From the IMG/VR virus record IMGVR_UViG_2511231131_000010: DNA of 46,425 nucleotides. The stretch is one strand, 5' to 3'. This document shows positions 24,001 through 27,000 of the stretch, piece by piece. The stretch comes from a virus. Lineage: Duplodnaviria > Heunggongvirae > Uroviricota > Caudoviricetes. The position numbers are program-made. Every line of letters begins with the position of its first letter. Within the stretch, counting starts at the first letter, position 1.

Positions 24001-27000
24001 AATGTTGTACGGACAGAATGACGCGATCCCCGCTTTCTGGGGTTCGGTCAGCGGCACCCGGATGTTTTTCTCCACCCATGCCAGAGCCTTGTCACGTTCG
24101 ATGGCATTAACCCGGTCGCATTTTTCCTTTGACAGCTTCATGCCAGGAATAACAGGCTTACCATCCACCAGAATGGCACCACGGCAGATGGTCCAGATCC
24201 CCGCACCATCACGGTATGCCGTGGTGTGGTTACCTTCCTTTTCATCCAGAAACTGGTCGAGGATTTCAGGCGCAGAAGCACCTGCACCAATCAGCGCCAG
24301 AACGGCAGCCGACAGGCCGTATTTTATTTTTTCGTTCATGGGGATTTATCGATTTCTAATCCCTTGATATGTTAGGTATATAATCCAACACTCATGGTCG
24401 CTCTCATAAACATATCCCTTGAGACGCAGCAGATTACAACAAATGAAGCCATATAAATGAACAGTAAAGAAAGTTTGCGCAGAAGATTTTTACAACTAAT
24501 GACAGAAAACGTTAAATCAGAGTTACTTCTTCTGATGGCAGATAATAACGAAGCAACAAGCAGCATTCTTGCAGACCCTTACGGTAAGATCTCACATAAA
24601 ACGCTGGATATTATTACCACAACATTAACACCGCTGATGCTTCAACGGCTGAAACATAATATCAACGCATGGGTTAATGAAGAATTAAGTCCTCCCTGCT
24701 TATGGGATTCTCGTTACGCATGTCAGCAAAAAATGCGAATTTTCAACTTACTATCACCAAAGCTCAGGTAGCCATAAAATCCTGCCCTTCATGGCATACA
24801 GGATTTCAATGGAATCACAATGACCAACTCTTGCACAGCTGTATCCCTGACTCCCCGACAACTCAGATTTTCAGTATCTGCTGCTATCTAAAGAGAAAGC
24901 GCACAAATGCAAGGGTCTTTCATCACGTCCTGTTATTGATTGCCTGTGACCTTTTCTTACCTCATGGAACGTTTTTTCAGTTAGAAATATTCATTTTACA
25001 ACCAGTTCGTATTGTTTATTCATCGACTACTCTCCCCGCGCCACCTTACGCTTATCTTCTTTAATCTTGAAATAAAGGTTAGTCAGATACGTCAGCAGGC
25101 CAAACAGCAGACTCCCCAGCACACCGATTGCCACCCACTGGGACGGAGAGACTTTGTCCAGCAGCTGCAGTAACCAGTATCCCGTCCCCACCGCTGACGT
25201 GGTGTATGACACACCCGTTGTGATTTTTTCCATCTGATGTATGTCTCCGTCACCGCCGACAGAAAATGAAAGTAAAGAAAAACAAAAAAACCGCCAGTGT
25301 CACCCACTGACGGCCAACTCCGGGAGCCGTGATTATGGCATTCAGGCTCTGCTAAAAATGCCAGATAACATTCCGGCCTCCCCTGATTCAGGTTATAAAT
25401 GACACAATATCTTGACAACACCCGTCACTGTCTGTCAGAAAATATACCGCCAGGCATAAGTATCATGTGAAATCCAACTATCCTTCTGAGCCAGCACCTC
25501 TCCACCGAAAGTCAGTGCTGGCTGTTTTTTTCCTTAATAAAGCATCTGTAACTGAAACAATCCGCATATTGATAATATATTGACAGGCATCATTGCTGTC
25601 TGTGAAAAATAAGTCTCTACAAACATATAAGGCCTTTTAGCCAGCGTCTTCTTTCAGGTCAGTCGCTGGCTCTTTTTTTATTATGCTGCCGGTGCATTTA
25701 TCTCCAGCACCAGACTTTCTATCTCAACGCCATACGCTGCATTTTTTGTAACATCCGTCAGCGTCAGCGCATTCAGTCCCAGTGTCAGACTGTCTTTTAT
25801 AACCTGGAATGCCGGACCAGCCACTCCATTCAGTTTCGGAGTAACCGTGGCACTGCCGGCGGTGAACACCAGCTCCAGCGTCTGCCAGTCGTTACCGTAA
25901 TCGCCGAACTCCCCCAGCTTCGTGTTTCCGGCTTTCCTGTGATGCATCAGATTCACTCTGCCGTCAGTGGTCTGAGTGAAGTACGACATCAGGAACGGAT
26001 TACCAGTACCCGTCATCGCCACACCATCAGGAACGGGAGCATCCGTATACAGATAAATCCCCAGCCCGAACTGATTGTTGGTCAGTGCGCCTGACAGGCG
26101 GAACTTACAGGTCAGTCTGCCGCCCTGTGTCAGCAGGGTAATTGCGTCATCCACCGGATGCGTCAGGGACCAGGTTTTATTGCTCTGCTTGGTGATCTTA
26201 AATACACCATCTGACAACTGAATTCCGCCATCCTTAATGCTCCAGCCCTGCGCAGCAGCCTCTCCGGCTGCCGGCAGCAGGGAGATTGTGCGAACGGACG
26301 TATCTGCAGACGGACCCGATGGCGTGTTGCCGCCGGGCGAGGGTTTGATTTCCGGTGCCTTACCACTGATGAAGGCTGAGGTGCGCCCGGCTGCGTTCAG
26401 AATAGCGGTTGCCAGACGATCCGGAATAATGCTCCTGCGCGCCCATGAACTGAAATGTGTCGGGCGGTTTGATGATACCTGGTTTCCATTCGTTCTCGAT
26501 GCCGCACCGTAATATCCTGATGCCGGAATATCCGGATCTTCTGCCGGCGCGTTAGTGGCGGTATTGACGCCGTTACCGTCTGTCATGAAGGGCACAAAAT
26601 AAACGCCCTCACTCTCCCTGTTTTTATACCCGCCGTACACGGTGTCGTACTGGGTAGCGTATGTATTTTTCCAGTAATACGTCGTGTCACCACAAACCCA
26701 CGGCACATCTGCAGCACTGCCACCATGGCACTGCGCGTTAAACACGGAGAGGTCAGCACGAAACTGTGTCAGCATGGCTGTAAACAGCGCAGGTTGCTGT
26801 GCGTGGGTGGCGGCGCTCATGTCAAACTCACCCTGCATCCAGCAGACGGCCAGCAGAACGTTTTTGGGATTTTTCTGCAATGCCGCTTTTGTGCGGGAAA
26901 TCAGATCCTGATATAACGGCTTGCCCACCCCCCAGCGTGCCGAATCCTGACTGGCCCCCGTGGACTCGCTGAATGTCCCCTCCGCGCCCTGGGTAAATGC

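Follow-up and report, generated by a model that had tools for sequence, protein, structure and literature searches.

The DNA analysed here is a stretch of 46,425 nucleotides (the window) of an Escherichia coli lambdoid prophage, IMG/VR virus record IMGVR_UViG_2511231131_000010, in which the late operon occupies the minus strand. This report concerns the interval between two genes of its lysis cassette. Upstream lies S, which encodes a holin of the S21 type (class II; 25027-25233, minus strand; Pfam PF04971, Phage_holin_2_1, E 1.9e-32), and downstream lies R, which encodes a lysozyme of 177 amino acids (23806-24339, minus strand; Pfam PF00959, Phage_lysozyme, E 7.6e-24), with Rz/Rz1 (23003-23527) on the same late strand. 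The open reading frame (ORF) and Pfam boundaries of S and R leave a gap of 687 bp, 24340-25026, and bear out an earlier note on this DNA that had placed an AT-rich insert there. The gap has a G+C content (GC) of 0.390, whereas the window as a whole has 0.519, S 0.522 and R 0.541 (S, R and Rz together span 0.52-0.54), and ranks in the lowest 1.2% among all 687-bp windows; the composition is indeed unlike that of the flanks, as had been claimed. Read from its sequence, the insert consists of two parts: an intact gene of 104 codons on the plus strand, antisense to the late operon and proximal to R (24457-24771), and the remnant of a dead late-strand gene in the S-proximal third.

The 104-codon ORF had been noticed before, and it is a genuine conserved gene. 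Homologues of its product have 49-79% identity and span all 104 residues; in a codon-level comparison of six alleles, the ratio of nonsynonymous to synonymous substitution rates (dN/dS) is 0.13-0.30, with dS near saturation, and the remaining five frames are full of stop codons in every allele compared. The protein matches PHROG 1853, a family of unknown function, with E 3.5e-47, its residues 1-102 aligning to profile positions 57-158. The relatives do not carry the segment as a non-coding spacer devoid of a conserved frame, which is the outcome that the earlier note had set against itself. The protein family is narrow: when 1.84 billion representatives were searched exhaustively with a profile, only about 20 clusters at 50% identity emerged. 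In RefSeq, the Prokaryotic Genome Annotation Pipeline (PGAP) lists the gene as WP_000138558.1, a “hypothetical protein” of 90 amino acids starting at ATG 24499 and otherwise identical to the window protein. Because residues 1-14 of the longer form are conserved among homologues, and because the homologue of the phage-86 type has Ile rather than Met at the RefSeq start position, the true start is, on this comparison, ATG 24457, and the RefSeq start is 14 codons too late. No literature on WP_000138558 was found.

By prediction, the product is soluble and basic and consists of five helices. The AlphaFold2 model has a mean predicted local distance difference test score (pLDDT) of 84.7 and shows the five helices, the calculated isoelectric point is 9.3, and the maximal Kyte–Doolittle mean over 19 residues is 0.66, compared with 1.83 for the neighbouring holin. 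The protein has no transmembrane segment and no lipoprotein signal, either of which would be looked for in a holin, antiholin or spanin. Two other ORFs in the interval can be set aside. The 64-codon hydrophobic ORF on the late strand (24372-24566, minus strand), put forward in the earlier note as an alternative gene, exists but is spurious: the closest sister alleles interrupt it with an in-frame stop codon, and distant alleles have it closed. A plus-strand ORF of 120 codons (24702-25064) matches no family and is located in the neutrally evolving part of the insert.

That part, 24772-25026, is shown by sequence comparison to be a neutrally evolving pseudogene, homologous to the YdfR family (DUF1327). 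Next to S lies a mini-ORF of ten codons, MNKQYELVVK followed by a stop (24991-25023, minus strand), which is the surviving N-terminus of the dead gene and sits where the terminal GGAG of the holin gene would drive translation. It is identical at 8/10 positions to the start of orf5 of phage 86 (MKKKYELVVK), a protein matching Pfam DUF1327 with E 3.6e-44, and the mini-ORF region has 87% DNA identity to its counterpart in one surveyed locus (L003). Between 24772 and 24990 (minus strand) there are degenerate remains of the C-terminal domain, visible as colinear tblastn traces and lacking any annotated feature in RefSeq: 24819-24941, interrupted by stop codons, and MKGRI at 24778-24792. The C-terminal trace gave 39% identity over 41 amino acids with E 1.8e-5 when the target was about 0.8 kb. 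There is no intact DUF1327 (PF07041) ORF in 24772-25026, the mini-ORF being followed by stops and frame breaks, and no intact ancestor of 24772-24990 was found at the DNA level.

What the dead gene would have looked like can be seen in Stx2 (Shiga toxin 2) phage 86, in the Stx2a 12E129 phages and in many E. coli contigs, where the 104-codon gene also lies between S and R. In those loci the late-strand neighbour encodes 185-333 amino acids, directly follows S and converges on the 104-codon gene. It is a mosaic YdfR-family protein: an N-terminal DUF1327 domain is present in some versions only, there is a coiled-coil segment, and the C-terminal domain, which ends in …YLKGRI, is conserved; its AlphaFold2 model (pLDDT 45.5) was too poor for a fold search. 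In the Qin prophage of E. coli K-12, the gene order is essQ–ydfR–rrrQ, with ydfR at the S–R junction, the position of the dead gene in the window. The dead gene shares the N-terminal DUF1327 motif and this junction position with the DUF1327 genes of the surveyed loci described below, and differs in that only ten codons and degenerate traces survive. YdfR is reported to bind RNase E at its catalytic domain (2026 paper, PMC13232886). YdfR is unrelated to the 104-residue protein; its reported binding to RNase E is uninformative on the opposite-strand gene, and the papers on DUF1327 and ydfR bear on the remnant only.

The wider setting of the interval was surveyed in 53 IMG/VR loci anchored on a holin at least 91% identical to that of the window, with R within reach. 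S and R were adjacent in only 6/53, and 47/53 carried 370-1310 bp of cargo, mostly YdfR-family genes; the 104-codon gene was present in five. The premise that S and R are normally adjacent was therefore wrong, adjacency being the minority state in these prophages. That the S–R junction holds a mobile accessory segment of foreign composition is supported; that this is a single insertion between otherwise adjacent genes is not. The segment is the decayed form of a slot that is commonly occupied and highly variable, and whose layout in relatives is a late-strand YdfR-family gene plus an opposite-strand cargo gene. At least six unrelated opposite-strand genes occur at the R-proximal position, all of unknown function. 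Besides the 104-codon gene of the window, these encode proteins of 95 (PHROG 10490), 90 (PHROG 2411), 87 (PHROG 18136), 86 (PHROG 2572) and about 210 amino acids; four of the five thus have clear PHROG matches, and the last has no family. The 95-residue protein, itself unrelated to that of the window, has a weak partial match to the PADLOC model PDC-S51 (2.5e-5). No literature describing opposite-strand genes in the S–R junction was found. In 85 of the 92 listed loci, that is, in every listed locus with an uninterrupted R start within reach, 117-134 nt separate the start of the 104-codon gene from the start codon of R, the two genes being divergent.

The start of R also differs between adjacent and occupied junctions. 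Where S and R are adjacent, the 3′ end of the holin gene (GGGGAGAGTAA-GCTG-ATG) supplies a Shine–Dalgarno (SD) sequence for R, an arrangement of translational coupling in which R begins MSRKLRYG and is served by the holin gene's terminal GGAG. In the window, R begins MNEKIKYG and its ATG follows …AAATCCCC, which has no purine-rich SD (23806-24345, minus strand). The R genes preceded by cargo all seem to lack a canonical SD; the loci listed for this comparison of R starts are the window, L161, L172 and L176.

Between R and the 104-codon gene lies what would be a divergent control region (24340-24456, plus strand), in which the roles of the motifs are judged from their sequence. It holds a −35-like TTATCG (24346-24351) and a −10-like TATGTT (24368-24373) separated by a 16-nt spacer, a TATAAT, and a weak SD-like GAAG (24445-24448), all on the plus strand. 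The TATAAT reported in the earlier note is present, one base to the right of the position given there (24379-24384, not 24378-24383); its conservation stops at the window clade and the closer relatives of that clade. The absence of a clear SD is likewise confirmed, GAAG being the only candidate; sister alleles have GAGG and distant alleles GAGGA. The TTATCG-16 nt-TATGTT block is conserved upstream of every type of opposite-strand cargo and is a candidate for a weak promoter common to them. Apart from the window clade, the cargo types also have in common a leader of about 80 nt beside R, …GGATTTATCGGTTCCGAATCCCTGGATATGTTAAGTCTTCAGCC followed by a hairpin, after which a cargo-specific region extends to the start codon, with an SD of the GAGGA/GAGG type in the 104-codon family. 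Loci without opposite-strand cargo share merely the first 20 or so nucleotides of the leader. The window clade has lost the leader hairpin, has a 10-bp deletion beside R and has gained the TATAAT.

The leader hairpin (GCCAGTGGTGGGCACTGGC) is itself conserved: it precedes five different opposite-strand cargo genes, at about 50-80 nt from the start codon of R (in L003, L004, L022, L080-L083, L115, L133, L140, L143 and L170). The locus with the 90-residue cargo (L164) has a different hairpin at the same place, CAGCCTG…CAGGCTG, and in the phage-86 type a T-run follows the leader hairpin. The element could be a 5′ stabiliser of the messenger RNA, a processing site for the R messenger or a cassette boundary. 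At the other end of the gene, an AT-rich hairpin (AAATCCTG / CAGGATTT; 24777-24806) starts 6 nt past the stop codon and is a weak candidate for a bidirectional terminator; it is present in the minimum-free-energy fold of the minus strand, and it was not called by a terminator scan.

The window and four other loci (L014, L068, L069 and L071) form a clade without an intact neighbour, with a common remnant of 256 nt, so that selection on the two parts of the insert can be compared. Within this clade the 104-codon gene shows 5-7 synonymous and 2-4 nonsynonymous differences, giving a ratio of nonsynonymous to synonymous differences per site (pN/pS) of 0.11-0.16 and a binomial P of 0.003-0.013 against neutrality. 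The remnant differs between sister alleles at 15-20 of 255 sites (6-8%), which is about the synonymous rate of the adjacent 104-codon gene. Codon comparison thus shows purifying selection on the 104-codon gene both in the past and, in the clade without the neighbour, as an ongoing process. Selection that continues after decay of the neighbour speaks against a role that needs the neighbour to be present, and the gene appears to be retained for its own sake.

Taken together, the segment is best read as the decayed content of a variable accessory-gene slot at the holin–lysozyme junction of E. coli lambdoid prophages of the Shiga toxin (Stx) type, carrying a gene of the kind called a moron (defined by Juhala et al. 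2000, as cited in PMC2629481 and PMC10884400). The probability that we attach to this reading, roughly 0.6, applies to the combined statement of slot, moron, expression in the lysogen and benefit. That the 104-codon gene is a real protein-coding moron is very likely: it is present or absent between the same flanking genes, its base composition is distinct (GC 0.39 against 0.52-0.54), and it is oriented against the late operon at a fixed 117-134 nt from R. As for a promoter and terminator of its own, there are candidates only, namely TTATCG-16-TATGTT, the clade-specific TATAAT and the weak hairpin past the stop. Expression during lysogeny is probable, and a role in defence or exclusion is a tentative suggestion drawn by analogy.

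The sequence of events would be as follows. Transcription of the gene would start from weak sigma-70-type signals belonging to it, within the 117 nt that it shares divergently with R, and its product would consequently be made in the repressed prophage; during lytic growth, convergent late transcription, antiterminated by Q, would overrun and silence it. A small, soluble, basic five-helix product would most likely act by binding another protein. The least secure step is that the benefit would most likely go to the lysogen, e.g., through interference with superinfecting phages, and that the late-strand neighbour may originally have been a lytic-phase counter-partner, as in the Tab/anti-Tab pair.

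Two known systems are instructive here. The lom and bor genes of phage lambda are likewise extra genes, of differing base composition, that separate late genes found side by side in some relatives; like the 104-codon gene, bor is oriented against the late operon, next to Rz, and expression from the repressed prophage would by analogy be expected. The 104-codon gene differs in having no clear pair of promoter and terminator, in encoding a predicted cytoplasmic product rather than an envelope lipoprotein, and in lying inside the S–R junction rather than after Rz. The closest precedent found is the Tab/anti-Tab pair of Pseudomonas phage JBD26. Tab is a protein of 83 amino acids with no recognisable family, encoded on the opposite strand, under its own promoter, between two late genes; the gene for anti-Tab lies on the late strand and follows the upstream gene directly, and the 3′ ends of the two genes overlap (PMC10884400). 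The layout is the same: an upstream late gene, a small late-strand gene, a convergent opposite-strand gene with an overlapping 3′ end, and a downstream late gene. The flanking genes are terminase genes in JBD26 and lysis genes in the window, the phages belong to different groups, the late-strand partner is dead in the window, and the layout is all that is in common. The resemblance is therefore a lead and not a sign of membership, and makes a defence role plausible by analogy.

Several observations weigh against the moron reading. On the side of expression, no promoter reached the threshold of a consensus scan in 24340-24456, the candidate hexamers score 7/12 by our count, the TATAAT lacks a −35 element, the SD of the window allele is weak (GAAG), and there is no clear terminator 3′ of the gene. 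Since no motif reached the scan threshold, we infer expression of the gene from its conservation alone. On the side of function, Pfam and NCBIfam gave no match for the 104-residue protein; PADLOC-DB 2.0 gave none for it or for three versions of the late-strand neighbour; a Foldseek search of the model against viral structures was uninformative (best E 1.4); a sequence profile search of the PDB returned noise only; and homology to gp31/gp30 of JBD26 was not found (BLASTP E 0.30; hhalign probabilities 1.2% and 0.1%). An Rfam scan of 24200-25700 gave nothing at the gathering threshold and one chance match to a small nucleolar RNA (E 3.6). No specific function can be assigned to the gene from family, defence-model, Rfam or fold searches, which lend no direct support to the roles suggested in the earlier note (lysis modulator, toxin or defence gene). 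Furthermore, the IMG/VR survey is redundant, so that its counts are not independent, and the selection test in the clade without the neighbour is based on 7-11 substitutions, numbers that are small but consistent.

A bolder version of this reading is that the R-proximal end of the S–R interval is a cassette hotspot, in which the leader of about 80 nt, with its candidate promoter and 5′ hairpin, drives interchangeable defence or exclusion genes expressed in the lysogen, and the variable C-terminal modules of the YdfR-family neighbours are matched neutralisers for the lytic phase. We consider this unlikely as it stands. If it were true, logic of the Tab/anti-Tab kind would be widespread in Shiga toxin-type prophages, and the effector in the window would have outlived its neutraliser.

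Also unlikely is an obligate two-gene module, in which the 104-residue protein would neutralise or regulate its late-strand neighbour, in the manner of an antitoxin or immunity protein, and would in the window be an orphan heading to decay. Consistent with this, an intact convergent neighbour with the C-terminal domain (…GRCMGYLQ…YLKGRI) accompanies all allele types except the window clade and the L012/L072 type (~80%), the linkage persists across synonymous saturation, and L009/L013 show a 21-nt overlap of the two 3′ ends. The 104-codon gene of the L012/L072 type, where the neighbour is missing too, has lost its stop codon and is flagged as incomplete. However, members of the neighbour family greatly outnumber the 104-codon gene and are mostly found in its absence, purifying selection persists after the neighbour has decayed, and the linkage can be explained by recombination anchors on either side (DUF1327/coiled-coil on one, leader and R on the other). 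Nor do the genes resemble a classical toxin–antitoxin pair, which is co-transcribed and of known family: they are convergent and not one operon, no toxin–antitoxin or defence model matches, and no toxin or antitoxin family in Pfam, NCBIfam or PADLOC was found for either.

Control of lysis is an improbable third explanation. Transcription of the plus strand would here serve mainly to curb leaky expression of S and R, by an antisense effect or by collision, for which paQ and oop of phage lambda are models, or the protein would itself modulate the holin or endolysin and set the timing of lysis. Such a role would suit a gene inside the lysis cassette that points away from R and whose transcription would meet no strong terminator on its way into S; the loss of the S–R translational coupling found in adjacent relatives would suit it too, and the late-strand remnant RNA folds somewhat better than shuffled sequences (z −2.64). 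Against this, the plus-strand remnant RNA has no excess structure (z 0.09), selection acts on the amino acid sequence and not merely on transcription, and the protein, unlike holins, antiholins and spanins, has no membrane segment; the occurrence of six unrelated cargo genes at the same place is further evidence against a dedicated lysis function. Finally, the view that the segment is an AT-rich spacer or junk whose ORF is open by chance, for which one might cite the lack of a Pfam domain, the weak SD and the lack of a called promoter, is refuted by the homologues, the dN/dS values, the single open frame and the PHROG match.

With the moron reading retained, the 104-codon gene belongs to a familiar class of uncharacterised phage accessory genes and is listed as hypothetical in existing catalogues; what is new is a corrected start for the gene, the recognition of a pseudogene remnant without RefSeq annotation, and the S–R junction as a cassette slot with a common leader. 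Were the product a lysogen-expressed effector, it would represent a new family in the prophage exclusion and defence repertoire and give the mosaic YdfR-family genes a testable role; were it not, the corrected start, the remnant and the finding that adjacency of S and R is the rarer state would keep their practical value.

The gene is present in 673 of 5426 complete E. coli genomes (~12%), most copies being the window allele at 99% identity or more, and many of the carriers are Shiga toxin-producing E. coli lineages (O157:H7, O121, O145, O111 and O103). A pattern-based scan of one genome per species, which was not exhaustive, found no relative. Among 50,697 phage records, megablast and blastn gave no match to the insert, the window allele being absent, and the tblastn matches were confined to four Stx2 phage records (about 53% identity), of the phage-86 type, in which the neighbour is intact. 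The gene lies just downstream of the location that Shiga toxin genes have in the two Stx2 phages that were examined. A copy of the same prophage is in L001 (O157:H7 PV15-279, 1.17 Mb), where an element of the IS3 family replaces the 3′ part of R together with Rz, and the portal and large-terminase genes are frameshifted; as the 104-codon gene is 100% identical there despite this damage, it has been kept in a clearly defective prophage.

Other elements of the window deserve mention. Between the holin gene and a sialate esterase gene (25681-27531, minus strand) there are two tandem units on the plus strand, 25410-25535 and 25580-25680, convergent with the late operon and each consisting of a TTGACA-type promoter, a GC-rich hairpin and a T-run. 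Their location is that reported for the PasA/PasC small RNAs (bioRxiv 10.64898/2026.05.13.724894) and by Tree et al. 2014 (PMC4104026) for “convergent sRNAs”; Rfam gave no match for 25410-25680 at E<=5. Between Q and the esterase gene lie the STnc100 small RNA (137.7 bits) and, beside it, three tRNA genes (27754-27944 and 28021-28270, minus strand), called by ARAGORN as Arg-tct, Arg-tcg and Met-cat, the last being tRNA-Ile in RefSeq. This arrangement is the usual late-region layout of Stx phages, and no stx genes are present. A C4 antisense RNA (75 bits) adjoins the Hfq-binding RNA isrK (62 bits) at 36777-36962 (minus strand), which suggests an immunity module of the c4-icd-ant type of P1/P7 in this lambdoid prophage. 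A second low-GC block (down to 0.38), 21441-23278, lies between the small-terminase gene and Rz and is probably another moron region; it contains a further ORF of 104 codons (22222-22536, minus strand), the FORC064 counterpart of which is a PerC-family regulator.

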